DNA of 48,538 nt from a virus (lineage: Duplodnaviria > Heunggongvirae > Uroviricota > Caudoviricetes), in the IMG/VR virus record IMGVR_UViG_2740892445_000002. One strand, 5' to 3'. Shown one piece after another: positions 2,689 through 36,440 of the stretch. The notes below the pieces were generated by a model. That model worked only from the letters and a program-made list of their open reading frames with translations. It was not told the DNA's origin and searched no databases. How positions within the stretch are numbered: the stretch's first letter is position 1; each line of letters begins with the position of its first letter. The position numbers and the translations under genes were made by a program.

Positions 2689-5600
2689 TCACGAAATACT
2701 GATACCCGCCGTGGATTTTTTCATGACCACAACCAGTAAATCACTGATGTATGTTGTCGGCGTCCAGTGGTTCACCCCGTTCGACCACACATTAAACGTC
2801 AGGGTCACATGACCCCGTCCTGCCGGCATATCAATGACGGACGAAAACACCCGGGTGACATCCGTTGCCGGCTCATGAAAAATTACCCTTCCGTTCATCT
2901 GCACCTGTAACTGACACGTGGAATACCATGTTGAAGTGTGATCTTTGCTGGACTGGTGCTCATGTCTCGCCCCCCGGAACAGTACCGGTGGAATGATGAT
3001 CTGCCTGTCGAAGCCCTGGTCATCATAAACGGTGACCGTTATAGTGCCACTGGCATAACTGTTATTCCGTGGGAAAGCTTTCCCCACTGTTTTGACCAGG
3101 TCACCTTCAATCTGGTTTGCAGACAGTTTTCCCAGAATCCGGCAGTTCTGGTTAATGGTCACATTATTGAGCGTGCCAGAGTTCGCATTAATATTTCCGC
3201 TGATATCCGCATTACGGGCCGTCAGCCTGCCTTCCGGCGTCAGGGAGAACACAGGGGGATTGCCGGACGAGGTGATGCTCACCGCAAACAACCGCTTCAG
3301 GAATACGTCGTTCATGAACAACTGATTCCCCTGCGCCACAAACAGCGGCGTGGTGTTGCCGTTCTCCGGGTTAATCATCGCGATACGGTCAGCCTGCAGC
3401 AGAATATTGCTCAGGGTCTGGCCATCAACATCCTCAATCCCCGCACCAATACCAGCAACATACGGAATACCGTTTTTCGTTTTCTGCACCTTCAGCATGT
3501 ACAGTGCGCTCAGGCTGTCATCCGTCTCCTTCTGCACACGCTGTATCTGCTGTATGGTGACACTCTGGTCTTCCAGGATTTTATTGACCGTCTGTGTGAT
3601 TTCATTGCGGGTTTCTGTGATGGTGGTCTTCATCTCCGCCATCTCATCATCAAGCTGACTGTTATCAATCAGCTCCCACATCCCCTGTGCCAGATGTGTC
3701 TTCCCGATTTCTCCTTTGAAAAAGTCCAGATAACCTTCCGCATCATTGCTCGCCCGTCCGGTTGCTTCAACAAAAACGGATTTACCCACCAGGTTGACGC
3801 TGCGCACATAAAACCAGAAATCTGTCCCTGGCTTAATGTGCGAGCCGGAGACGCTCCACTGGCTGCCGGTCCCCAGATAACGGGCGGACGTTTCCACCTG
3901 TGCCGTGTTCGTGATGCGTTTTTCTGAGAACCAGAATTCAAACTGTACCGTCGGATCATACAACGCAAGACGCGGCACTGCTGTTATCTGGAAATAGCCG
4001 GGGGTCAGTTCAATGGTGGCAGGTGCTGCCGGTGCGTTAATCCGGAACGTGGTGGTGGCAGGCTCCCCCAGCTGGCCATAGCTGTTTATCGCCCTGACCG
4101 TCAGGGTGTATTCCCCCAGCGGCAGGCCACTGAAACGGTGCTCCGTGTCGGCGGTGATGGCGCTGGTCACCAGACGGCTGTTTTCACCGGTTCCGCTGGT
4201 CAGGCGCAGACTGAAGCGCACGCCCTTCACCACCCTCGGCGTGTCCCATTTCGCCGCCGCCAGATACTGACCGTCAGACGCGCTTACCTCCACCGTGAGA
4301 TGCTGTACTGCCGGAGGTGTGACACTGTTCAGCGAACCGGACAACGGCTCAAAGGTGGCACCATTATCCACGATGGCCTCCTTCTCCGGCACATGCTGCA
4401 CCGCCGTGATGGCGAAGGTACCGTCCGCATTTTCGCGGATCGCCACACACCGAAACAGACGGCGGCGCAGTCCCGGCAATGCCAGCCCCCAGATACTGTG
4501 TTCCACCACCCCGTCAGGCAGTGTACTGATCTGTATCCTGTCAGGTGATGGCTGCCCGGTAACATCCACACTCACCGGTTTACCGCTGCCGTTTATCAGA
4601 TTCACCGTGGATGTGCCCTTTTCCGGGAGGGTGACTTCACGGTCAAGCGTCAGGGTCCGGCTGGCGTTGTCGACGGACAGGATCCGCCCGCCGATCACGG
4701 TACCGGCATACGCATTATCACTGATTTCAATGATATCGCCCGGCGTGTGACGCAGTCCCTCCGCCCCCACACTGAAATCCACTGTCTGTGTTTCCAGCAG
4801 TTCGGTCTTTATCACCCACAGGCCTGCCCGGTGAGCCTGACCACGGCTGGTACAGCCGAACGCATCCATCTTCAGAAGATTGCGTCCGTAGCGCAGTATG
4901 GCATCCGGATCCTCCACCAGTTCAGTCGATGTCTGCCAGCCATTCTGCGGATCGGTGTAATTCACCTCAACTGCCGTGTGTCTGTCCTTGAGGGCACTGA
5001 AGCTGTAATGAAAACTTACCCCATCCTCCCCCGTCACCACATTACCGGCGGTATAAGTCCAGACAACATCCGATGGTCTGTCCTGAACAAACGTCAGCGT
5101 CTGTCCGTTCCATACCGGCATACAGCGCATTGCAGAGCAGAAATCCCCCAGCACGTCCCACGCCTTACGCTGTTGTGACAGGTACGCATTAAAGGTCATA
5201 CGGGGTTCTGTACCACCAAAGCCATCCGGAACCGGCTGGTCACAGTACTGTCCGAGGGCATAGAGCGCCCACTTGTCCACATCCGCGGCCCCGAGGCGCT
5301 TTCCCATACCATAACGTGGATGCGTCAGCATATCCCACAGACACCAGGCCGGGTTGTTGCTGTATGCCGGTTTCAGAGTCCCGTCCCAGATACCGCTGTA
5401 TGTACGTTTTTCCGGGTCATAGTTTGACGGCACCTGGATGATGCGCCCGCGGATATGGTAGTTCACCGCCATCTGCTGCCCACCGAACTGCTCCGCATCC
5501 ACCTGCAGCCCCACTATGGCTGTGTTCGGGTAGCTCTGTTTCACATCGATGATTTCGGTGTATGACGACCAGAGCGTTCTGTTCTGCAGCTGGTCCGTGG

Positions 5601-6165
5601 TACTGTCCGCCGTCTCCCTGACTATCCGGATATTAAAGGGACGCTCAGGGAGGTTACCGATTATCACCGACGTCAGGTACTGCGAGGTGGTCTTACCGTT
5701 AATGGTGATATCCTTCTCTGTCACCCAGTGCCCGCTACGCTCAAGCTGAATCAGCAACCGGACAGAAGAGGGATTACGGTCACCCTTTGAGGTCGTCTCC
5801 ACCAGTGACTGAACCCCGAAGGTGACCCGCAGACGGTCAATGTTCGCTGACGTGATGGTGCGCGTCACTGGCTTCGCCTTCGTCACCTCCACGCCCAGTG
5901 CGGTTTCCGCACCAGAAGACTCAAAGCCTTCCGGCGGCGTCTGCTCCTGCTCCCCTGCACGCCAGACGGCTGTCACGCCATGTATCACGGGATTACCGTC
6001 CATATCCGTCAGCGGGGTTTTGTTCACCAGAATACTCTGCAGTCCCTTCACCGGACCTTCAACCGGCCCTTCACCAATGGCATCAATCACGCTCATCATC
6101 TGCGTGGACTTCAGGTTATCCTTCGCCTCACGCGGTGTGTGCCCCTTGCCGCCCCCCTTACCCAT
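2689..6165 (-). CDS. J: host specificity protein J (central tail fibre)
   Basis: 1158 aa; N-terminus [22 protein letters not shown]... and extended colinear similarity to lambda gpJ as I recall it. Confidence 0.95.
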
Positions 6166-7045: not shown

Positions 7046-7695
7046 TTTTCAGAATACCTCTCCCGTTTACTCAGTTGTTCAGGTATATGGTGAAGCAGTT
7101 CACCATTGCCACAGTAAATGGCAGCATGATTGGGTACCGATGAACCAAAACAGCACAGCAGAATGTCTCCCGCCTGTGCACCGGACAGGGATACCCGGTA
7201 AAAGCCGTTTTCCGCCAGATTGTCCAGGTACAGGTTCTGACCGTTGCGCCACCAGTCATCCTCACGCGCAAAATCCGGCAGCGTTATCCCCGCCAGATGG
7301 TATGCATCCCGGAACAGGGTGTAACAGTCCGTCACACCGTGTTCAAAACGCCGTCCGGTGAGGTGCGGAACGCAGCGGAAATGATGAATTTCGCCCCGGC
7401 AGACCAGCCACCAGGGAATTGCACTTTTTACCTGCAGCCGTCGGTCCGCCTCGCTCAGCCAGGGCAGACCGCCGGGATGACTGTGGACCAGCGCCACAAT
7501 CTCCCCCTGCATATCCGCCCGCAACCAGTCTTCCGGCGCAATACGAAAATACGCCTCCGGCTCTGCAGAAATATTCACGCACGGCTGATACTGCTCCCCC
7601 TCCGGCGTTCTCACCACGAAGCCGCACGACTCCGCTGGCGCACACCGCCGTGCATGCGCCAGAATGGCTGATTCAGTCTGTTCCATGATAATCAC
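6943..7695 (-). CDS. K: tail assembly protein K (MPN/JAB plus NlpC/P60-like)
   Basis: N-terminus ...QTESAILAHARRCAPAESCGF..., HSHPGG motif; overlaps I start by about 100 nt. Confidence 0.85.
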   Translation of the reverse strand: MIIMEQTESAILAHARRCAPAESCGFVVRTPEGEQYQPCVNISAEPEAYFRIAPEDWLRADMQGEIVALVHSHPGGLPWLSEADRRLQVKSAIPWWLVCRGEIHHFRCVPHLTGRRFEHGVTDCYTLFRDAYHLAGITLPDFAREDDWWRNGQNLYLDNLAENGFYRVSLSGAQAGDILLCCFGSSVPNHAAIYCGNGELLHHIPEQLSKRERYSEKWQRRTHSVWRHRHWSVSAFTGIYNDLVAASACM

Positions 7696-8390
7696 TGTGA
7701 AAGTTTATTAATGGAAAGGAAAAAACCGCCGTTTGCCACATTCCCGCGCATTTCACAACCGCGCAGGCACTTGCTGCATTTGTCTTTCCTGATATCCGTG
7801 GTGGGTTTGTCGAACTCGTCAGCCACTGCCGGGCCGTTATACCCACATTCCTCTCCACGGTAATCCCACGGACAGGTATTGGCCAGCATGATACGACCGG
7901 GAAACAGCGCCCCGTCCGTCTCTGCCGGTGTCGCCAGGATAAAGGTCGCCTTTTCGCAGGTCAGCGCTGACAACTGCTCCACCACCCAGCGATCTGTCAA
8001 CTCCTGCTCAGGGTCTGCCTCCGGGTTTCCCGCAACAAAATTCACGGCATCGAGAAAACGGGCGTACACCCGGCGGCGAACCACCGTGCCCCCGACCAGA
8101 CTCTGCAAATCCTCCGCCATGCCGGTGACCAGTCCGAACAGATTCGAGACAATCAGCGACGGTCGCGCACTGCTGCCCTTGCCGTTCATCTCAAAGCCGC
8201 TGCCCTCTATCGGGTATGCCTGATACTGACGCCCCTGCCAGGTGACAGGCTCGCCCTTTTCATTGATTTCACCGCAGAAAAAATAGCGTTCGCCTCCCTG
8301 CGCCTTCAGGTCGATTTCCCACAGCACCACGCGGGCGGACTGCGCTGATTTTACTGCCTCGTTCAGACTCTCCTCATGAATATCCTGCAT
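7692..8390 (-). CDS. L: minor tail protein L
   Basis: Start placed at internal Met (MQDIHEESLNEA...) matching lambda gpL N-terminus; the longer ORF (to 8459) would read through a terminator hairpin. Confidence 0.9.
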   Translation of the reverse strand: MQDIHEESLNEAVKSAQSARVVLWEIDLKAQGGERYFFCGEINEKGEPVTWQGRQYQAYPIEGSGFEMNGKGSSARPSLIVSNLFGLVTGMAEDLQSLVGGTVVRRRVYARFLDAVNFVAGNPEADPEQELTDRWVVEQLSALTCEKATFILATPAETDGALFPGRIMLANTCPWDYRGEECGYNGPAVADEFDKPTTDIRKDKCSKCLRGCEMRGNVANGGFFLSINKLSQ

Positions 8391-8404
8391 ATGTATCCGC
8401 CCAT

Positions 8405-8428
8405 AAAAAAGGGGCGCAGACGCGCCCC
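8405..8428 (-). terminator. intrinsic terminator downstream of porin moron
   Basis: Minus-strand GGGGCGCG-UCU-GCGCCCC followed by UUUUUU. Confidence 0.7.
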
Positions 8429-8595
8429 GAACAATACGTTCAGTTTTAAATAAAACCAATAAAGGTAATAACAGAAAATTAAATCAGCATATGCATGGCA
8501 ATTGCTGATGCAGTGACCAATGAAAACTATGTTTTCATTGATACAGACCGCCTGTAAGGGCAGACGGTCTGTATTTATTAACTTATCAGCAATAA

Positions 8596-9759
8596 TCAGA
8601 ACTGATAAGTCATCCCAACAGCAACGATATTATCTGTCGCAATACCGGCTTTCTGGGTAAATTCGCTTTCATCAATCAGGTTAATTTTATAATCAACATA
8701 AGTGGACATATTTTTGTTAAAGTAATAAGTCGCACCGACATCAATATATTTAACCAGATCCTGGTCGCCATGGTTCACACCACCAACCATAACATCCTGT
8801 CCGCGGGACTGCAGATAAGCCAGAGATGGACGCAGGCCAAAATCGAACTGATACTGAGCAACCATTTCAAGGTTTTGTGCTTTATCCGCAACCCCGGTAT
8901 CACCAAAAGTGGTCATATTCTGGGTTTCGGAATAAATTGCAGCCAGATACAGATTGTTTGCATCATATTTAAGGCCAGTCCCCCACATCTCAGCATACTT
9001 ACCTTTTGCAACGCTGCCGGAATCAACGGACACTTCTTTTTCCGTCACATCCCCCGTTAAAGGATCTTTGACTTCAATAGTTTTGCTACCATTCAGGCCA
9101 TTAACCTGCTTACCTGTACGATCTGACTTAGTATACGCTGCCACAAAACCAAAACCATCAAACTCATAGCTGGCAGAGAAACCATATCCATCACCATTAG
9201 ACTTCTGGAGGTCATCTCGCTCATTTTTTCCCTGATACTGGGCTGCAAAGTTAAGACCATCCACCAGTCCGAAGAAATCTGTATTGCGGTAAGTCAGCAC
9301 TCCGGAAGTACGAGCAGTCATGAAGTTATCAGTCTGCGTCCAGCCATCGCCACCAAATTCTGGCAGAACGTCTGTATACGAACCGACATCATAAGCGATA
9401 CCATAATTACGCCCGTAATCAATGCTACCTAAATCAGCGAATTTCAAACCGGCAAATGCCAGACGGGTTTTATTGCCTGCCGTCCCTTCAGACTCGGCCT
9501 TATTACCTGAAAACTGATATTCCCAGTGACCAAAACCTGTCAGTTGATCATTGATCTGAGTCTCACCTTTAAAACCAAGACGTGCATAGGTCTTATCGCC
9601 ATCATCACCTTTATCGTCTGAGAAGTAATGGAGAGCAGTTACACGACCATAAAGATCCAGCTTATTACCATCTTTATTATAAACTTCTGCTGCCTGAGCC
9701 CCCGCAGCAAACATCACTGCCACTGCAACAGCAGAAAGTGCCACTGTCATTTTTTTCAT
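8596..9759 (-). CDS. OmpC/OmpF/PhoE-family general porin (phage moron)
   Basis: 387 aa; signal peptide then [17 protein letters not shown]..., C-terminal YVDYKINL...VGMTYQF porin signature; inserted between tail genes M and L with AT-rich upstream region. Confidence 0.9.
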
Positions 9760-9992
9760 TTATTTAGTCCTTTTTAATCTTTTAACCGAACTGTTCACAA
9801 CAGAAACTGTCATAAACATTATTTAAAATATTTAAAATAGCTGCCCATTCAATATTCAAAATGTAAGAGAATGTAAAAAAAAGATCCAGGCAACACTTTA
9901 TAATAAGAAATGAGACAAATAAATATATAAAATAGCAATTTATTATTTTAATTATTTTCACTACTTTTATTTATTTTATTATTTTATCCACT

Positions 9993-10322
9993 TCAGCTTA
10001 CTACCTGTTTAAACTCAGCACTAAATTCCACACGCAGCATATTTATCCTGGAGGTCCATTTAGCACACGTCACCTTTATCTGCCTGTACGTATAAGGCGG
10101 CGTCCACAGAAACGCCTTCCAACCCCCGTGCTCTGCCAGAAAATCTTCCAGCCGTCTGGCATCATCACGGGACACAGACAGCGAAACGTTGTAGATTTTC
10201 AGATCCGCATTCAGCCCGGCAGGCGCACGCTGGGAATACCCGTCCCCAAAACGCACTTCCATAACCGACGGCTCAGAGGTCACTTCCATTCCCGGCTTCA
10301 CTTTCCAGCGAAATGTTTTCAA
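9993..10322 (-). CDS. M: minor tail protein M
   Basis: 109 aa, MKTFRWKVKPGM... as in lambda gpM. Confidence 0.9.
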   Translation of the reverse strand: MKTFRWKVKPGMEVTSEPSVMEVRFGDGYSQRAPAGLNADLKIYNVSLSVSRDDARRLEDFLAEHGGWKAFLWTPPYTYRQIKVTCAKWTSRINMLRVEFSAEFKQVVS

Positions 10323-12901
10323 CGCCCACCTCCGGAGAACATACCGCCATCACGCATCTGTGCCTGGATCTCATCACGGGCTCCCTTACGGGCCATGTCA
10401 TAAACCAGCACCAGTGCCTGCGGACCGATACTGCCATTCGTGGCATCATTCTGAATCACCACATTGTTGTTCTGATTAAAACTGATACCATCTGCCCGCC
10501 GCATCTGAGCCTGACTTCCGGAACCACCCACATAACCGCCATCCGCATACCCCCGCATCAGGCGGTACAGGTTGCCGACACCAATCCGGCTGGTTGCCTC
10601 CTTCGTGAACACAAACTCACCACGGTGAACAATCCCCGCAGGCTCATATTTTCCGCCAGTGCCGGTGAATCCACCGGTCGCAAAATGAAAGTTTGCTGCC
10701 GCAGCCTGAATGGCTGTCCCCGTGGAAGCTGACGCGCCAGCACCACCAATGGCTCCCCCGATGGCGCTGCCGATACTCCCGACAATCCCCACCATGGCCT
10801 GTTTAATCAGGATTTCCGTCATCATGGACAGCACCGAACGGGTGAAACTGCGCCAGTTCTGTTCACTGCCGGTCAGCATTGCCGCCATATTCTGTGCAAT
10901 ACCATCAAAGGTCTGCGTTGCAGCACTTTTAACCTGCGAAAAACTGTCCGTCGCACTTTCAACCCACTCACCCCAGCCAGACTTAAACCCGGCCAGCCAG
11001 TCACTGCGCAGCATATCTTCATCCGCCCATGTCTGCTTCAGTGCCCCGGTGACCTGTGCCAGCGCCTGCGGATTATCGCGGTACACGTCACGAAGACGCT
11101 GCTCTTCAGACTCACGCTGCGCCTGACGATCAGTGAGACCGCGGGCTTTTGCGCTGATGGCCGCCTGCTTCGCGCTCTGCTGCTCTTCAAACCGCGCTGC
11201 CTGCTGTGCCAGCTCATTCAGCCGTTTCTGGTATTCAACCTTGTCGCCCAGGTCAGCCAGCTGGCGTTTGTACTCCAGCGTCTCTTTCTCATGGGCCAGC
11301 AGGGATTTTTCCTGCTCAGATAACTGCCGTTTCGTGGCGGCCTCTTTCAGGACCGCATACTGATTTTCCGCTTTCCATAAATCCCGGCGCTGCTGGCTGA
11401 TTTTCTCATTCGTACCACTGTGTTTTTCCAGCGTCCGGAGCTCGGTATCAAGCGCCAGCAGGGCAGCATGCGCCTGGTCTTCCTGACGCTCACCGGCTGA
11501 CACTTTTACACCTGACGACTTCGGCTTTTTCAGCGTCGCTTCATAATCCTTTTTCGCAGCCGCCATCAGCGTGTTGTAATCTGCCTGCAGGATTTTCCCG
11601 TCTTTCAGTGCCTTCTTCAGTTCCTTCTGGCGGGCGGTATATTTATCCAGCGGCGTCTGCAGGCGTTCATATGCCTTCTGCACCTCTTCGGTGTACTTCA
11701 GCCGTGAGGCCTCTGATTCAGCCCGATCCCGTGCCGCCATTTCGCTGGCTTTTTCCAGGTCTGCCTGCAGTGTCGCCGCTGAAAGACCGAGGCGGGCGTT
11801 TTCGCGGTCGTCCCATGCGCCGCGCAGATTAGAAAGATACGCTGACGTTTTTCCGCGCCGGTTACTGCGACTCTGATACCATTGCCATTTTTTATCCGCC
11901 TCATCGAATGCCTGCTGTGCCTTATTCAGCATTTCTGCAGATGACTCAGGACGCCCGATATCCAGCACTGCATCCCACATGGATTTAAACGCACTGCCGA
12001 CTTTATCCGCCCAGGTCTCCAGCGTTCCCATATTCGCTTTCAGGCGGCGGGTCTGCTCATCAAACCCTTTTGTGGCGGCCTCGTTTGCGGCCTGCAATGC
12101 CCCGGCCTCATCACCGGAACGCTGCAGTTGCGCAACATACGCAATCTGCTCTGCCGTCACGTTACGGAACTGGCGCGCCATCGCCATCAGCCCCGACGTC
12201 GGGTCGGTGGTCAGTTTTCCGAAAGCCTCTGCAATCTTGTCCACTTCCACACCGGATGCAGAAGCAAAACGCGCCACACTCTGATTAATGGCATCAAACT
12301 GTTCACCACCACGCACACCGGCATTCACCAGTGCTGCCAGTGACTCACTCGCCTGATTAAACGTCAGCCCTGCTGCCTGTCCTGCTCTGGAGAGAGTCAG
12401 CATGCGATCTGCGGTCAGCCCGGACTGATTACCGGAAAGAACCAGGGTTTTATTAAACGCTGAAAGCGTGGAGTCCCCCTGGTACCAGGCATACGCCAGC
12501 GCCCCGGTTGCTGCAACGAGTGATGTGATCCCGACAGCAGGCAGCGTGACGGCACCAGCAAGGCTCCGGAACATGGGGATCAGCCCACCGAAGGAGTCCT
12601 TCACCTGTCCGCCCTGCTGCAGCAGGATCAACCACGGACTCTGACCACCGGCAAGCTGCGTGGCGATATCCGTGAACTGTGCGGGCAGGGTACGCATGGC
12701 TGCTTTATACTGCCCGACGGAAATCCCGGCTTTTTGTGCGGCCAGCGCCTGACGGTTCAGACTCTGCTCAACGGCACCGGCGGTTTTTCTGGCGTCGGTA
12801 TCCAGTCCTGAAAAATGACGCCTTACCCGGCTCATCTGCTCATCGAAACGGGCCGCATCCAGACTCAGGTCAATAACAAGATCACCAACCGGCTGGGACA
12901 T
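10319..12901 (-). CDS. H: tail tape measure protein H
   Basis: 860 aa, long coiled-coil middle, Gly-rich C-terminal part; position and size match lambda gpH. Confidence 0.95.
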   Translation of the reverse strand: MSQPVGDLVIDLSLDAARFDEQMSRVRRHFSGLDTDARKTAGAVEQSLNRQALAAQKAGISVGQYKAAMRTLPAQFTDIATQLAGGQSPWLILLQQGGQVKDSFGGLIPMFRSLAGAVTLPAVGITSLVAATGALAYAWYQGDSTLSAFNKTLVLSGNQSGLTADRMLTLSRAGQAAGLTFNQASESLAALVNAGVRGGEQFDAINQSVARFASASGVEVDKIAEAFGKLTTDPTSGLMAMARQFRNVTAEQIAYVAQLQRSGDEAGALQAANEAATKGFDEQTRRLKANMGTLETWADKVGSAFKSMWDAVLDIGRPESSAEMLNKAQQAFDEADKKWQWYQSRSNRRGKTSAYLSNLRGAWDDRENARLGLSAATLQADLEKASEMAARDRAESEASRLKYTEEVQKAYERLQTPLDKYTARQKELKKALKDGKILQADYNTLMAAAKKDYEATLKKPKSSGVKVSAGERQEDQAHAALLALDTELRTLEKHSGTNEKISQQRRDLWKAENQYAVLKEAATKRQLSEQEKSLLAHEKETLEYKRQLADLGDKVEYQKRLNELAQQAARFEEQQSAKQAAISAKARGLTDRQAQRESEEQRLRDVYRDNPQALAQVTGALKQTWADEDMLRSDWLAGFKSGWGEWVESATDSFSQVKSAATQTFDGIAQNMAAMLTGSEQNWRSFTRSVLSMMTEILIKQAMVGIVGSIGSAIGGAIGGAGASASTGTAIQAAAANFHFATGGFTGTGGKYEPAGIVHRGEFVFTKEATSRIGVGNLYRLMRGYADGGYVGGSGSQAQMRRADGISFNQNNNVVIQNDATNGSIGPQALVLVYDMARKGARDEIQAQMRDGGMFSGGGR

Positions 12902-24403: not shown

Positions 24404-24946
24404 ATGAACAGATACTCTAAACTTCAAATTCAATTACATTGGCTGACTCTCGTATTAATAGCTATAGCCTGTGCTGCAATGGAACTTCGAGGTTTGTTTC
24501 CTAAAGGGTCTTCCTCCTATTTGCTTATGAGAGAAACACATTACAATGCTGGTATATTTATTCTTCTACTGATGATAATAAGAGTAATTATCAATAATAA
24601 ATATATAACACCAGCTATTACGCCGCCCCCACCTGCATGGCAAATGATATCAGCCAAATTCATGCAAACCCTGTTATACATATCTTTTTTGGTGTTACCA
24701 GTATCAGGACTTGCAATCATGGTTTTTGGAGGTAAAGCATGGAGCCTTCTGGGGATTGATATTCCCACTTTCGCTAACACCGACGGAGAAGTAAAATCCG
24801 TAGCCAAAACTATTCATGAATCACTTGCAAATATTGGTTATTTATTAATCACACTCCATGCTGGCGCTGCATTAATTCATCATTATATTCAGAAGGACAA
24901 TACACTTGTCAGAATGCTCCCTGAGCACCAGCATGATAAAAAGTGA
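24404..24946 (+). CDS. cytochrome b561 family protein (moron in bor position)
   Basis: 180 aa, four predicted transmembrane helices, conserved His positions typical of the CybB/b561 family. Confidence 0.8.
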   Translation: MNRYSKLQIQLHWLTLVLIAIACAAMELRGLFPKGSSSYLLMRETHYNAGIFILLLMIIRVIINNKYITPAITPPPPAWQMISAKFMQTLLYISFLVLPVSGLAIMVFGGKAWSLLGIDIPTFANTDGEVKSVAKTIHESLANIGYLLITLHAGAALIHHYIQKDNTLVRMLPEHQHDKK

Positions 24947-26057: not shown

Positions 26058-26174
26058 GGGGATTTATCGTTTTTTAATCTCTTGATATGTTAAGTATATA
26101 ATCCAACACTCATGGCAGGTCTCATAAACATATCCCTTGAGACACAACAGATAACAACAAATGAGGCCTTATAA

Positions 26175-26489
26175 ATGAACAGTAAAGAAAGTTTGCGCAG
26201 AAGATTTTTACAACTAATGACAGAAAACGTTAAATCAGAGTTACTTCTTCAGATGGCGGACAATAACGAAGTAACGAGCAGCATTCTTGCAGACCCTTAC
26301 GGTAAACTCTCACATAAAACGCTTGATATTATTACCACAACATTAACACCACTGATGCTTCAACGGCTGAAACATAATATCAACGCATGGGTTAATGAAG
26401 AATTAAGTCCTCCCTGCTTATGGGATTCTCGTTACGCATGTCAGCAAAAAATGCGAATTTTCAACTTACTATCACCAAAGCTCAGGTAG
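26175..26489 (+). CDS. hypothetical protein, YdfR-like (DUF1327-type), opposite strand between holin and endolysin
   Basis: 104 aa, AT-rich gene with GAGG Shine-Dalgarno 8 nt upstream; position matches ydfR of Qin. Confidence 0.55.
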   Translation: MNSKESLRRRFLQLMTENVKSELLLQMADNNEVTSSILADPYGKLSHKTLDIITTTLTPLMLQRLKHNINAWVNEELSPPCLWDSRYACQQKMRIFNLLSPKLR

Positions 26490-26744
26490 CCATAAAATCC
26501 TGCCCTTCATGGCATACAGGATATCAATGGAATCACAATGACCGCCTCTTGCACAGCTGTGTCCCTGACACCCCGACAACTCAAATTTTCAGTATCTTCT
26601 GCTATCTAAAGAGAAAGCATACAAAGTCAAGGACCTTTCATCACATCCTGTTATTGATTGCCTGTTACCTTTGCATACCTCAGGGAACGTTTTTTCAGTT
26701 AGAAATATTCATTTTACAACCAGTTCGTATTTTTTATTCATCGA

Positions 26745-29846: not shown

Positions 29847-29851
29847 GTCCA

Positions 29852-29876
29852 TAAAAAAGCCCCTCCGGAGAGGGGC
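29852..29876 (-). terminator. intrinsic terminator after repeat unit 1
   Basis: Minus-strand GCCCCUC-UCCG-GAGGGGC followed by UUUUUUAU. Confidence 0.6.
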
Positions 29877-29898
29877 ATACTAGCTATATATCCATTTA

Positions 29899-30026
29899 TC
29901 ATTGGCTGCGTGGTGCCGGGTGCCTCCCGGTGAGCTCAGTCTGGTGTCACTGAGCCCGCACATTCTCGATCCAAGTTATCGTCGGAGATAATACCTGATA
30001 CACCAGACGCCCCTCCGCACAGGGGG
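29899..30026 (-). repeat. tRNA-like cloverleaf repeat unit 1 (candidate structured ncRNA)
   Basis: Conserved blocks GGTGCCGGGTGCCTCCCGGTG and CCCCTCCGCACAGGGGGATTCACCA; terminal stem CGTGGTG/CACCACG; variable interior. Confidence 0.5.
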
Positions 30027-30263
30027 ATTCACCACGCGCAGAGAAGGATACTGAACACTATTTTCTCCAGGCAATATGCAATAACATGAAGTGTGAGATG
30101 ACTTACAATTATAAAAAACAGCCTACAGAATACTCCTAAATAAAGCCATATCAAAATGAGTAACACAAAAAGGAACCAGGCAAAAATTTACGAGCAGGTA
30201 TTATCCAGCAACAGTTCAGACGCCATAACTTATTGCCGATAGCTACCATCAATAATTTCTTTC

Positions 30264-30289
30264 ATAAAAAAGCCCCTCTGAAGAGGGGC
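30264..30289 (-). terminator. intrinsic terminator after repeat unit 2
   Basis: Minus-strand GCCCCUC-UUCA-GAGGGGC followed by UUUUUUAU. Confidence 0.6.
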
Positions 30290-30316
30290 TGACATACGCA
30301 TTTGCTTTCATCATCA

Positions 30317-30439
30317 ATATGGCGCCGGGTGCCTCCCGGTGCTCCATAACTGATTAATATGGAACGCGGTTTCATTCAGTTGCATTCATGAATAACACTC
30401 TAATCAGTCCGCCCCGCCGCTTAGGGGGATTCGCCATAT
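30317..30439 (-). repeat. tRNA-like cloverleaf repeat unit 2 (candidate structured ncRNA)
   Basis: Same blocks with compensatory changes (GGCGCC... / ...GATTCGCCA); terminal stem ATATGGCG/CGCCATAT; interior closed by ACTGATTA/TAATCAGT. Confidence 0.5.
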
Positions 30440-30574
30440 AAATTGAAAGTACTGAACACATCTGTCACAAACAATATGCAATTGTATGAATTGTGAGATT
30501 ATTATCAATAACACAAAATTACAGCTCTAGTACATAAACAGCAGATTAAACAAGAACAACAAAAGTATTGAATT

Positions 30575-30697
30575 GCACGGTGCCGGGTGCCTCCCGGTGA
30601 ATTCTGCAATGACCAGACAGAATCCGCAACTTGCTACTAACGCTAATGCGACCAAGCCTCAGTCATTATGCCCCTCCGCACAGGGGGATTCACCATG
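30575..30697 (-). repeat. tRNA-like cloverleaf repeat unit 3 (candidate structured ncRNA)
   Basis: Same conserved blocks; terminal stem GCACGGTG/CACCATGC (one mismatch); interior closed by AATGAC/GTCATT. Confidence 0.5.
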
Positions 30698-30827
30698 CGC
30701 TAAAAAAATACAAAACGTCACGTCACTCTGACAATACGAAGCACCATAAAATGTGAGTTATTTATCAATTCTTAATTCTGGTTACAGGAATATTCCGAAT
30801 CAAATCTTTAAAAAAAGAAATTCAAAT

Positions 30828-30930
30828 GCATGGTGCCGGGTGCCTCCCGGTGAACAGACCGTCCGTGATACCAGTAGGCAACACAGGAAATTAATGGTAT
30901 CACCCCACCGCACAGGGGGATTCACCATGC
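30828..30930 (-). repeat. tRNA-like cloverleaf repeat unit 4 (candidate structured ncRNA)
   Basis: Same conserved blocks; terminal stem GCATGGTG/CACCATGC; interior closed by GTGATACCA/TGGTATCAC. Confidence 0.5.
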
Positions 30931-31320
30931 AGGCGTTTTCTTAGCAAACTAACTGCGCGCCCGGCAACTCCCAACCACATAAAACGTGGAGTTTGTAGCA
31001 TTTATGCACATAACTCACAGGGGTTATCTTAAAAAAAGCTGACCATGCTTCCCCGGCAACGCAATAACTTTATTCCCTGAAGTGGCATCCCCCGTATTGT
31101 CGGCAGGCTCAAAAAGGAGCCAGTCATCTGAGGATGACTGGAAAAAGGAAAGATAAAAAATTATTCATCATACAACCTTCGTTGCAGGGGAGAATCCTGC
31201 GGTGCAGCAACATACAAAAACATAAGCCAACTAACAATATGCAGGCATAGCATTTTCGGATTTTGTTATATGGCACGGTAACTGAATGCTTACCTGATAT
31301 ACAGTCCGGTATAAAGTTGC

Positions 31321-31582: not shown

Positions 31583-31660
31583 TGCTGGACCGTCACCGGG
31601 GACTCGAACCCCGCATTTTCAACATAAAAAGGTTGATGCTCTTTCCTGATGAGCTAGTGA
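31583..31660 (-). tRNA. tRNA-like gene with 8-nt anticodon loop CUUUUUAU (Lys-UUU-like; possible variant or pseudogene)
   Basis: Acceptor stem CCGTCAC/GTGACGG, D arm GCTC-ATCAGGAAA-GAGC, T arm CGGGG-TTCGAGT-CCCCG, encoded CCA; anticodon loop one nt too long. Confidence 0.55.
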
Positions 31661-31662
31661 CG

Positions 31663-31737
31663 GCATGGTTGCCTTGCTGGATTTGAACCAGCGACCTGGC
31701 GATTATGAGTCTCTCGCTCTCACCACTGAGCTAAAGG
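31663..31737 (-). tRNA. tRNA-like gene with CAU anticodon (Met/Ile2-like), imperfect acceptor and anticodon stems; possible pseudogene
   Basis: D arm GCTC-AGTGGTGA-GAGC, anticodon loop CTCATAA, T arm GCTGG-TTCAAAT-CCAGC, CCA; only 4 of 7 acceptor pairs form by my reading. Confidence 0.45.
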
Positions 31738-31780
31738 GCCGGGAACAGAATAATAATGGTGCGTAATTAATTCTGCAATC

Positions 31781-33412: not shown

Positions 33413-34234
33413 CTATCGCGTTACCCTCTTCAACTGCCACTCTGCCCATGCCTCTGCAATATCAAACCGGACCACCAGCGTGTCATAGAATTGCTTAACT
33501 GTTTTTTCCCATGAAGCGCGTGTTATCTGATTTGTCACCTCACATATGGCATCAAATGCCTCCGTTGAAGGTAATCTTTCATAGCCACGCCCACCACAAC
33601 GCTGACAGTTTCTGAAAACCGGCATACCTCGTTTTTCAGACTCTTCACGATGAATGGCAACACCGCGCCCACGGCAATCTTTACAGGCAGTGGAGACCTC
33701 CCCCTTTCCACCACACTCCGGACAGGCAACTTTTACCACCTCCCTGACTTTTTTCCATTCCTCCCAGTAAGACGGATACACGCCTTTTGTACACTTTGCC
33801 CATACTGGCGGCTTACCATCCGGATACTGAATCTTGTTTGTAAAAATCTCGCTTTCAATAAATTTTTTTCCGTGACAGCATGGGCACTGTTTTTTGCTCG
33901 CCGCGCTCCGGGCATAATCCTCAAACGCATACGAAGCCATAATGCGCATCACTACCGGTTTTATTTCTGCCGGAAGTTTTCTTAACGCTGCCACGCGATC
34001 ACACCGACTGAGAGCGTATTCTGCCAGCAGTTCTGTTGCCCGCTCCCTGTCATTCATACTGATGCCCATTTTCCCAAGGAACGCAGAAAACCCCATCTCA
34101 GCCCGATTCTGTGTCATGCCCTGCGCTGCCATCACATCAGTGATACTCAGCGCATCTTTTGACGTTGAGGCCGATGCATCCGTCAGACCCGGTGATTTTG
34201 GGGAATAGTATTTTGGTAAATCTTCCAGTTTCAT
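33413..34234 (-). CDS. Q: late-gene antitermination protein Q (zinc-finger Q family of lambdoid prophages)
   Basis: 273 aa, four CxxC motifs (CPCCHGKK, CPECGGKG, CKDCRGRG, CQRCGGRG); located directly upstream of pR'/tR'. Confidence 0.8.
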   Translation of the reverse strand: MKLEDLPKYYSPKSPGLTDASASTSKDALSITDVMAAQGMTQNRAEMGFSAFLGKMGISMNDRERATELLAEYALSRCDRVAALRKLPAEIKPVVMRIMASYAFEDYARSAASKKQCPCCHGKKFIESEIFTNKIQYPDGKPPVWAKCTKGVYPSYWEEWKKVREVVKVACPECGGKGEVSTACKDCRGRGVAIHREESEKRGMPVFRNCQRCGGRGYERLPSTEAFDAICEVTNQITRASWEKTVKQFYDTLVVRFDIAEAWAEWQLKRVTR

Positions 34235-36107: not shown

Positions 36108-36263
36108 TTACTTCTCAGATTCGTAAGCTGTGAAGACAGCGACCTCCGTCTGGCCGGTTCGGATTCGTACCTCGCAGAGGTCTTTCCTCGTTACCAGTAC
36201 CGTTACAACGACGGTAATACAGATGACGATCAGGGCGATTAGCATCGCCTTTTGCTGCTTCAT
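36108..36263 (-). CDS. hokD: Hok-family type I toxin (HokD/RelF-like)
   Basis: 51 aa MKQQKAMLIALIVICITVVVTVLVTRKDLCEVRIRTGQTEVAVFTAYESEK, near-identical to my recollection of HokD. Confidence 0.9.
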   Translation of the reverse strand: MKQQKAMLIALIVICITVVVTVLVTRKDLCEVRIRTGQTEVAVFTAYESEK

Positions 36264-36440
36264 AGCCTGCTGCTCCTTGCCTTTCGGCGCGTAAGAGGCT
36301 AATCTAAGTGTGCAAGTCATAGATATGGCCTCAGATTAATGTTAAGCGTCCTGCAAGACGCATAATGTTAACTGGGGCTTTTCTCTGTCTGCCTTACGTC
36401 GGCATGCCCGAGGCAGACAGCCTCAAGCACCCGCAGCAAT
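36264..36440. promoter_or_regulatory. hok mRNA leader / mok start / antisense Sok region
   Basis: Minus-strand leader GGGUGCUUGAGGCUGUCUGCCUC... resembles hok mRNA 5' end; in-frame upstream start MTCTLRL... Confidence 0.45.

Follow-up and report, generated by a model that had tools for sequence, protein, structure and literature searches.

We analysed the virus record IMGVR_UViG_2740892445_000002, a lambdoid prophage sequence of 48,538 nt (the window, meaning this whole stretch of DNA at its full length), and found that a 1602-bp cassette lies exactly between its tail genes M and L. The cassette encodes an intact porin, followed by a 3' untranslated region (3' UTR) that has a conserved RNA structure, is related to the IpeX region of Escherichia coli K-12 and to its counterpart in phage P7, and shows exceptional complementarity to the leaders of the host porin genes ompC and ompF. 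From these observations we infer that the cassette would be expressed, that its RNA may be processed, and that it would repress the host porins to some biological benefit. The interpretation we favour, with a probability of about 0.65, is that of a porin moron whose IpeX-family 3' UTR silences ompC and ompF by base-pairing, the phage porin replacing the host porins in lysogens. New here are the insertion site, the divergent sequence and the dual-target seed (the stretch predicted to pair with the host leaders); the kind of element, the IpeX family, was already known.

A porin moron at the M/L junction

The late genes of the window lie on the minus strand and read, by ascending coordinate, J (2689-6165), I, K, L, a 387-amino-acid (aa) open reading frame (ORF), M and H (10319-12901). 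In lambda the stop codon of M and the start codon of L overlap (cTGATG), whereas in the window 1602 bp separate the end of M (...GCTGA) from the ATG of L. Both flanking genes are close to their lambda counterparts, with identities of 75% for L (both 232 aa) and 77% for M (109 aa). The cassette and its flanks are as follows.

8391-9992, minus strand: whole inserted cassette (moron), from the M stop codon to the L start codon
8596-9759, minus strand: porin coding sequence, an ORF of 387 aa with the stop codon included in the coordinates; residues 1-23 are the signal peptide
9760-9992 (233 bp), minus strand: upstream regulatory region and 5' UTR of the porin, 21% GC, with conserved blocks
9855-9877, minus strand: candidate OmpR-type box TTTACATTCTCTTACATTTTGAA, with a 12-mer core match
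8405-8595, minus strand: 3' UTR, a predicted IpeX-like RNA of 194 nt counting from the stop-codon U at 8598
8405-8428, minus strand: intrinsic terminator from a terminator scan (stem 8428-8411 of 7 bp, all G-C, 4-nt loop, U6/T6 at 8410-8405)
7692-8390, minus strand: tail gene L, downstream flank (TIGR01600, E 3e-104; Phage_tail_L match)
9993-10322, minus strand: tail gene M, upstream flank (PF05939, Phage_min_tail, E 1e-37)

The GC content of the insertion is 40%, compared with 57% for L, 52% for M and 51% for the window. The cassette thus combines an extra gene at a gene pair that is adjacent in lambda, a downstream terminator of its own, placed 14 nt ahead of the L start codon, and a composition unlike that of its neighbours. 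The terminator stem is unchanged across all variants aligned. A first-pass annotation of this DNA had proposed a complete 387-aa general porin, with an AT-rich upstream region and a downstream intrinsic terminator, that interrupts a lambda-colinear tail operon between M and L. Our analysis recovered every one of these elements, the insertion being exact and its coordinates identical to those proposed. These results identify 8391-9992 as a porin moron, in the sense of Hendrix and Juhala, placed precisely between M and L.

The porin matched the entire Pfam Porin_1 model (PF00267, positions 1-337/337, E 3.8e-144), intact and at full length. Its score against the NCBIfam OmpC subfamily (NF007841) was 508.1 bits, above the cutoff of 484, while the equivalog models for PhoE (486 against a cutoff of 599) and OmpF (475 against 583) were not reached. 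The signal peptide was placed by alignment to mature PDB chains, not by a dedicated signal-peptide predictor: residue 24, which follows AQA, aligns to residue 1 of the mature OmpC, PhoE, OmpK36 and OmpF chains (E 1e-131 to 1e-118). The loop-3 PEFGG motif (residues 133-137) and the C-terminal F387 are invariant in the porin alignment. Since the protein is only 65% identical to K-12 OmpC, it is an OmpC-subfamily paralogue and not the ompC orthologue. Judged by sequence, it is an intact member of the OmpC subfamily; the RefSeq label "porin OmpC" hides both its prophage origin and the RNA module that follows it.

An alignment of upstream regions showed that this part of the cassette differs between classes yet retains conserved blocks in divergent family members. 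The ompC C1 OmpR site TTTACATTTTGAAACATCTA has as its core the 12-mer TTACATTTTGAA, for which the window holds a single match, at 9866-9855. One of the conserved blocks is TTTACATT(T/C)T..ACA, of which TTTACATT(T/C)T is kept in all family upstream regions, the member L009 having TTTACATTTTGAAACA. A search for the full 20-mer ompC C1 site that allowed up to 3 mismatches gave no match. The box resembling the OmpR C1 site is thus a candidate, to be taken as a lead only.

The 3' UTR is a conserved structured RNA

The 194-nt 3' UTR folds with a free energy of -70.2 kcal/mol, compared with -39.0 +/- 3.7 kcal/mol for dinucleotide shuffles (z -8.6; 0/200 as good). In RNA order it consists of an AU-rich leader, hairpins 1 and 2, a linker, hairpin 3, an AU-rich single-stranded stretch and the terminator. 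Its parts, upstream of the terminator, are listed below; the percentages refer to cells of the family alignment.

8575-8590, minus strand: candidate anti-seed GCUGAUAAGUUAAUAA (RNA nt 9-24), predicted to pair with the seed and present in the minimum-free-energy and centroid structures
8541-8574, minus strand: hairpin 1, 14-bp stem; 98% of cells paired, 3 compensatory pairs in the family, 12/14 pairs covarying in an enlarged alignment
8518-8540, minus strand: hairpin 2, 10-bp stem; 100% of cells paired, 4 compensatory pairs, 8/10 covarying in the enlarged alignment
8510-8517, minus strand: single-stranded linker GUCACUGC, invariant in 9/9 variants
8483-8509, minus strand: hairpin 3, 7-bp outer stem; 98% of cells paired, 1 compensatory pair and 2 pairs with G.U
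8429-8482, minus strand: AU-rich single-stranded seed stretch of about 54 nt; ompC -37..-4 is the predicted partner of RNA nt 116-148 (8483-8451)
8465-8458 and 8475-8469, minus strand: seed segments CCUUUAUU and CUGUUAU, predicted to lie opposite ompC -30..-23 and -20..-14, respectively

In the family alignment (9 variants, four helices), 99.1% of cells formed standard pairs and 8 pairs showed compensatory changes; when the partners were slid by 1-3 columns as a control, only 37-45% were paired. RNAalifold predicted the same helices independently. Several helix positions alternate between A-U or G-C and G.U. Since the G.U alternatives can pair on the porin-sense strand alone, it is as RNA that the structure acts. 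The seed core does not vary even between classes with UTR identity down to 76%. No small ORF of meaningful length was found in the 3' UTR on either strand. These results demonstrate that the 3' UTR is a conserved structured RNA. The hairpin that the first-pass annotation had placed at about 8537-8570 is the 14-bp stem-loop at 8541-8574, the first of the three.

No sigma-70-like consensus promoter was found directly upstream of the UTR; this would fit an RNA that is cut from the porin mRNA, the origin reported for IpeX. The linker forms part of a conserved 9-mer, GGUCACUGC (8518-8510), whose first G (8518) closes hairpin 2. This 9-mer is complementary to GCAGUGGC, a motif common to the ompC (-50..-43) and ompF leaders, and could serve as a second contact site with the host leaders.

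The seed stretch is complementary to the ompC and ompF leaders

The seed stretch of the window contains CUGUUAUUACCUUUAUUGG; the corresponding sequences are CUGUUAUAUAUUACCCUUUAUU in IpeX, GUUAUAUGCCUUUAUUG at the 5' end of MicC and UUUAUUUAUUACCGUCAUU in MicF. The window was divided into 60-nt pieces on both strands (4848 in all), and each was scored for antisense alignment with ompC -50..+10. The seed stretch ranked first (1/4848) with a score of 51 (mean 17.4, sd 3.5), and the next scores were 44 and 40. The score distribution is heavy-tailed, and the meaningful statistic is therefore rank 1 within a region specified beforehand. The alignment comprises ~33 pairs over ompC -40..-5 and spans the MicC site and the Shine-Dalgarno sequence. 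When the seed was compared with 7642 pieces of K-12 and M18 host DNA (M18 is a mouse E. coli strain), the ompC leader ranked first, and the ompF leader was in the top five. In 5334/5371 E. coli genomes the ompC region -82..+10 is at least 99% identical, which means that the target is fixed among hosts.

Unrestricted RNAduplex and RNAcofold runs on full-length RNAs gave multi-site, GC-driven interactions with poor discrimination, and were replaced by the rank test, an accessibility test and a seed-only test. In the last of these, seed-only duplex energies were compared with those of dinucleotide shuffles.

Window seed with ompC: -29.9 kcal/mol, 0/1000 shuffles as good
Window seed with ompF: -27.5 kcal/mol, 1/1000 shuffles as good
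MicC with ompC (control): -26.5 kcal/mol, 1/1000 shuffles as good
MicF with ompF (control): -25.7 kcal/mol, 0/1000 shuffles as good
MicC with ompF (cross-pair): -16.0 kcal/mol, 514/1000 shuffles as good
MicF with ompC (cross-pair): -13.2 kcal/mol, 46/1000 shuffles as good

The duplex energies of the window seed are comparable to those of the validated MicC-ompC and MicF-ompF pairs. With hybridisation and accessibility combined, the window RNA scored -10.5 kcal/mol on ompC, ranking first among 50 leaders (z -3.2 relative to 42 arbitrarily chosen K-12 leaders), compared with -12.7 kcal/mol for IpeX on ompC and -15.5 kcal/mol for MicF on ompF.

Related RNAs gave similar results, with differing targets. 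IpeX of K-12 (L001 2390-2432, minus strand) pairs with ompC -32..-2 through 9 bp and 14-15 bp around an internal loop (-26.7 kcal/mol, 0/1000 shuffles); it matched ompC but not ompF. The P7 seed had its best match in ompF (-31.0 kcal/mol, 0/400 shuffles), and the members of class B in the window's own family matched both ompC and ompF, more weakly.

A separate observation concerns ompF: the window's top antisense score to the ompF leader, 57 (mean 21.2, sd 4.3), falls around 26100-26150 on the minus strand, in the insertion between the holin and lysozyme genes, and it may well be due to chance.

Stable stem-loops closed by a terminator are typical of mRNA 3'-end stabilisers, and the predicted full-length fold leaves only part of the seed free. 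The 3' region might accordingly act in cis only, its hairpins shielding the porin mRNA from 3' exonucleases and its terminator insulating the tail genes, with no trans-acting RNA at all. We consider this unlikely. An invariant single-stranded stretch of 50 nt would be superfluous for a pure stabiliser, and this particular stretch is the best antisense match to the ompC leader in 48.5 kb, with a duplex energy equal to those of MicC and MicF. Moreover, repression of OmpC and OmpF in trans has been reported for the homologous nmpC 3' UTR (PMC12197685, PMC5069750).

The 3' UTR is related to IpeX and to the P7 nmpC UTR

IpeX is a 167-nt RNA of the cryptic prophage DLP12 that is reported to be processed from the porin transcript (PMC12197685), and the module has also been reported downstream of lc in phage PA-2 (PMC8065619). 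In K-12, the distance from the nmpC stop codon to the end of the terminator is 165 nt, and the predicted fold of the nmpC UTR (z -9.2) repeats the order of leader, three hairpins, single-stranded stretch and terminator seen in the window. The 3' UTR of nmpC in P7 has the same layout (z -6.0); a literature search on this UTR found no published study. The location downstream of lc in PA-2 was reportedly described already by Castillo-Keller et al. in 2006.

A hidden Markov model (HMM) of the window family found the P7 UTR at E 1.2e-4 and K-12 ipeX at E 0.18 in nhmmer, while an IpeX HMM found the P7 UTR at E 6.8e-10 and the window at E 0.82, in the terminator only. We then used a covariance model, R1, built from the window UTR family (175 positions, 38 pairs). 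R1 scored 57 bits on the P7 nmpC UTR, 44.6 bits on an E. albertii porin 3' UTR and 38-43 bits on IpeX-type UTRs, including 38.1 bits on the K-12 nmpC 3' UTR (ipeX region, L001 2368-2515); the best unrelated sequence reached 13 bits. In the enlarged R1 alignment, which was fitted to R1 and is biased towards it, 96.3% of cells were paired and 22/38 pairs showed compensatory changes, compared with 38-47% paired in slid controls. Rfam 15 holds no IpeX model, and the K-12 ipeX region itself had no match there; permissive and gathering-threshold Rfam scans of the window's 3' region returned nothing relevant (best matches E 1.7-9).

The possibility, raised in the first-pass annotation, that an IpeX-equivalent small RNA lies in the 3' region is supported by R1, which finds the similarity to known porin 3' small RNAs whose absence would have counted against it, and also by the shared layout and a seed complementary to the ompC and ompF leaders. 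On the covariance model and the predicted fold, the window 3' UTR is most probably a diverged IpeX-family element at a new site.

In a further explanation, the 3' UTR RNA would lower the host porins without antisense pairing, for example by titrating Hfq or another factor. Titration of this kind was reportedly the original suggestion for IpeX, and the U-rich tail and AU-rich stretches of the window RNA could bind Hfq. The regulation by IpeX has also been described as not solely complementarity-based and as Hfq-independent for ompC (PMC12197685, PMC8313858). However, the complementarity to ompC is extensive (~33 bp here; 9 + 14-15 bp in K-12 IpeX) and highly non-random (0/1000 shuffles). Every family member shows such complementarity, with the preferred target differing, and a long duplex would be enough to account for Hfq independence. 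We regard titration as quite improbable.

Masking of the seed and points that weigh against antisense silencing

Several results weigh against the silencing of ompC and ompF by base-pairing, the first of which comes from the fold itself. In the predicted fold of the complete 3' UTR, most of the seed pairs with a target-like segment that directly follows the stop codon (8590-8575), and the mean unpaired probability of the seed is 0.25. The seed pairs with nt 1-26 with a probability of 0.65, and deleting the first 24 nt in silico raised its mean unpaired probability from 0.25 to 0.58. The anti-seed helix shows one compensatory pair between classes and has three pairs broken in class B. These predictions weakly suggest that the anti-seed may mask the seed in the unprocessed RNA; since the seed is mostly paired in the full-length fold, activity may need processing.

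The remaining points concern the targets, the kinship and the promoter. In the alignment-score test, class B seeds were not clearly above genomic background. The background for target scoring was limited to 42 leaders. The seed also has weak complementarity to the cassette's own leader (-20.8 kcal/mol, 17/400 shuffles). Castillo-Keller et al. (2006) reportedly found no complementarity between ipeX and ompC, which conflicts with the computed pairing. The sequence-only matches between the window and ipeX, though correctly positioned, are non-significant (E 0.18 and 0.82), and the link to ipeX rests on R1, with rough E-values, and on P7 as an intermediate. The family of cassettes at the M-L position (M-L family) comprises few independent lineages, with 9 distinct variants in about 4 classes. 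Upstream of the porin, the sigma-70-like sites at 9951-9922 and 9847-9818 are among 4 found where 5.0 are expected, which is chance frequency, and the OmpR-like 12-mer has a chance expectation of 0.39 at up to 1 mismatch and is not compelling alone.

The cassette recurs in E. coli prophages

The cassette region is 100% identical in the mouse E. coli strains M18, M1 and M3, with near variants in human, canine and rodent isolates; in M18 the prophage lies between potB and potC. The 3' UTR was present in 111/5426 complete E. coli genomes, chromosomal every time, and the carriers, many of them Shiga-toxin-producing, fell into identity classes of 100, 97, 93, 90, 79 and 76%; Shiga-toxin-producing strains are among the carriers of the 90-93% class. 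The order M-porin-L held in every locus inspected. Among INPHARED phages none carried the cassette: only P7 nmpC matched the porin (76% over part of the coding sequence), and the UTR query had no matches. A one-genome-per-species set yielded no porin above 69% identity and no M-L family member outside E. coli. A scan of viral contigs with the porin alignment returned 467 contigs with relatives, the best 80 of which form two groups, the M-L family (85-100% aa identity) and an NmpC/Lc type (68%); in the NmpC/Lc-type contigs among these 80, the downstream sequence is essentially K-12 ipeX.

In a decayed prophage of E. coli DETEC-P1056 (L010, 2428-3805), L carries a frameshift and IS66 has fragmented the tape-measure gene H, yet the porin and UTR are intact. 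The preservation of the cassette in this setting suggests that the cassette itself is under selection. As a side observation, the L010 cassette looks domesticated, comparable to nmpC in DLP12.

R1 also gave weak matches to genuine micF genes located upstream of ompC, with 13-24 bits in some 20 enterobacterial species, and to K-12 micF (15.8 bits). In the species-representative genomes (L125-L203) the matches lie about 300-430 nt upstream of ompC-like genes, on the opposite strand. These weak matches underline the MicF-likeness of the seed-terminator module. They point to shared ancestry or convergence, and could be taken to mean that a phage captured a chromosomal porin locus with a micF-like sequence, the 3' region now being a non-functional relic. 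We hold this to be highly improbable, given that the hairpins are maintained by compensatory changes, the seed core is invariant across 76%-identity classes and the UTR is intact in a decayed prophage. Furthermore, on the chromosome micF lies upstream of ompC and points away from it, instead of following it in the same orientation; simple capture therefore does not give the layout of the window.

Proposed mechanism and implications

Under the antisense model we favour, the porin gene would be transcribed in the lysogen from its own AT-rich promoter region, possibly in an OmpR-dependent manner, and transcription would end at the intrinsic terminator just ahead of L. The product would be a functional general porin, and the 194-nt 3' UTR would be released from the porin mRNA by processing or act as part of it. 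Two host leaders are the predicted pairing partners of the seed stretch: that of ompC at -40..-5, a span that takes in the MicC site and the Shine-Dalgarno sequence, and that of ompF at about -27..+5. Such pairing would block translation of ompC and ompF, allowing the phage porin to substitute for the host porins in the outer membrane. A plausible benefit would be an altered surface, with exclusion of OmpC/OmpF-dependent phages and colicins, together with altered permeability.

Read-through of terminators by Q antiterminators is established lambda biology, and the window encodes such a protein on the same strand as the moron, upstream within the late transcription unit.

33413-34234, minus strand: Q-type late antiterminator (Pfam Antiterm, PF03589, E 1e-51; RefSeq "antitermination protein" in strain M18)

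During lytic growth, Q-modified RNA polymerase would read through the moron terminator, and L, K, I and J would still be made.

If this mechanism is correct, temperate phages carry a two-part porin-swap cassette, porin plus silencing RNA, at two or more genomic sites. Many phages and colicins use OmpC and OmpF as receptors, and beta-lactams enter the cell mainly through these porins. Prophages with the cassette, present in about 2% of complete E. coli genomes, many of them Shiga-toxin-producing, could alter phage susceptibility, antibiotic permeability and surface antigenicity.

A broader and more tentative proposal, which we put at slightly under even odds, is that the IpeX-family RNAs, including IpeX of DLP12, are antisense mimics of MicC and MicF whose seeds have diversified (ompC for IpeX, ompF for P7, both for the M-L family), the M-L seed being masked by the anti-seed until 5' processing. 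If true, this would supersede the "novel, non-base-pairing mechanism" with which IpeX has been associated since 2006, and would define a general porin-swap module of temperate phages. The mechanism of IpeX has been described as unclear, and the base-pairing model for it is concrete and testable.

Other features of the prophage

Over its C-terminal 250 aa, J shares 86% identity with the J proteins of long-tailed Shiga toxin (Stx) phages (BP-4795 and others), a likeness that speaks neither for nor against OmpC as the phage's own receptor. The following features were also recorded.

29847-30960, minus strand: four tandem copies of Rfam STnc100 (RF02076; 133, 100, 102 and 77 bits), within about 2 kb without ORFs that separate the tRNA genes from a DUF6645 gene in the late region
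31586-31741, minus strand: two phage tRNA genes (ARAGORN: tRNA-Met (CAT) and one with an odd 4-base anticodon; RefSeq in M18: tRNA-Ile and tRNA-Lys)
36258-36432, minus strand: sok antitoxin RNA (RF01794, 115 bits), which adjoins an annotated hokD toxin gene and makes up a hok/sok module with it
24404-24946, plus strand: cytochrome b561 gene (PF01292, E 6e-25), opposite the late genes between the terminase and lysis genes, a second moron-like insertion
26058-26744: insertion of ~690 bp between the holin and lysozyme genes, with a 90-aa plus-strand ORF that has no Pfam match

Comparison with known systems

The window cassette resembles the classical lambdoid morons (lom and bor of lambda, Lc of PA-2) in adding a gene with its own terminator and deviant GC content amid conserved late genes, and in encoding an outer-membrane protein whose expression from the prophage is presumed. 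It differs from them in its insertion point, the M/L junction, and in carrying a predicted regulatory RNA module besides the protein.

MicC and MicF share with the window RNA overlapping target sites (the MicC site at ompC -30..-15; MicF around the ompF Shine-Dalgarno sequence and AUG), similar seeds and similar duplex energies. However, the Rfam MicC and MicF models had no match in 7500-10500 at E up to 10. In K-12 both are stand-alone genes divergent from ompN and ompC, whereas the window RNA is a co-oriented 3' UTR downstream of a porin coding sequence. They are without the three-hairpin 5' domain, and, unlike either of them, the one window RNA is predicted to reach both ompC and ompF. The window element resembles MicC and MicF in its predicted action and is not a member of their family.

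The closest likeness is to IpeX, downstream of nmpC in DLP12 and of lc in PA-2. Both RNAs lie between the stop codon of a phage-borne porin and its intrinsic terminator, and both consist of three hairpins, an AU-rich single-stranded stretch and a G-C-rich terminator. Their seeds share CUGUUAU..UUACC(C)UUUAUU and are complementary to the same ompC leader site. The window RNA is longer (194 vs 165-167 nt) and has some 27 additional nt from seed to terminator; its hairpin 3 differs, and it has the invariant linker GGUCACUGC. Its seed matches ompF strongly, whereas that of K-12 IpeX does not. The window porin is 68% identical to the NmpC/Lc-type porin, and its cassette sits at M-L in the tail operon, whereas the IpeX cassettes sit between Q and the lysis genes. 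Outside the M-L family, the closest relative is the P7 nmpC 3' UTR, which has the same layout but is located on a P1-like phage-plasmid beside ssb and lysis genes, and whose seed favours ompF.

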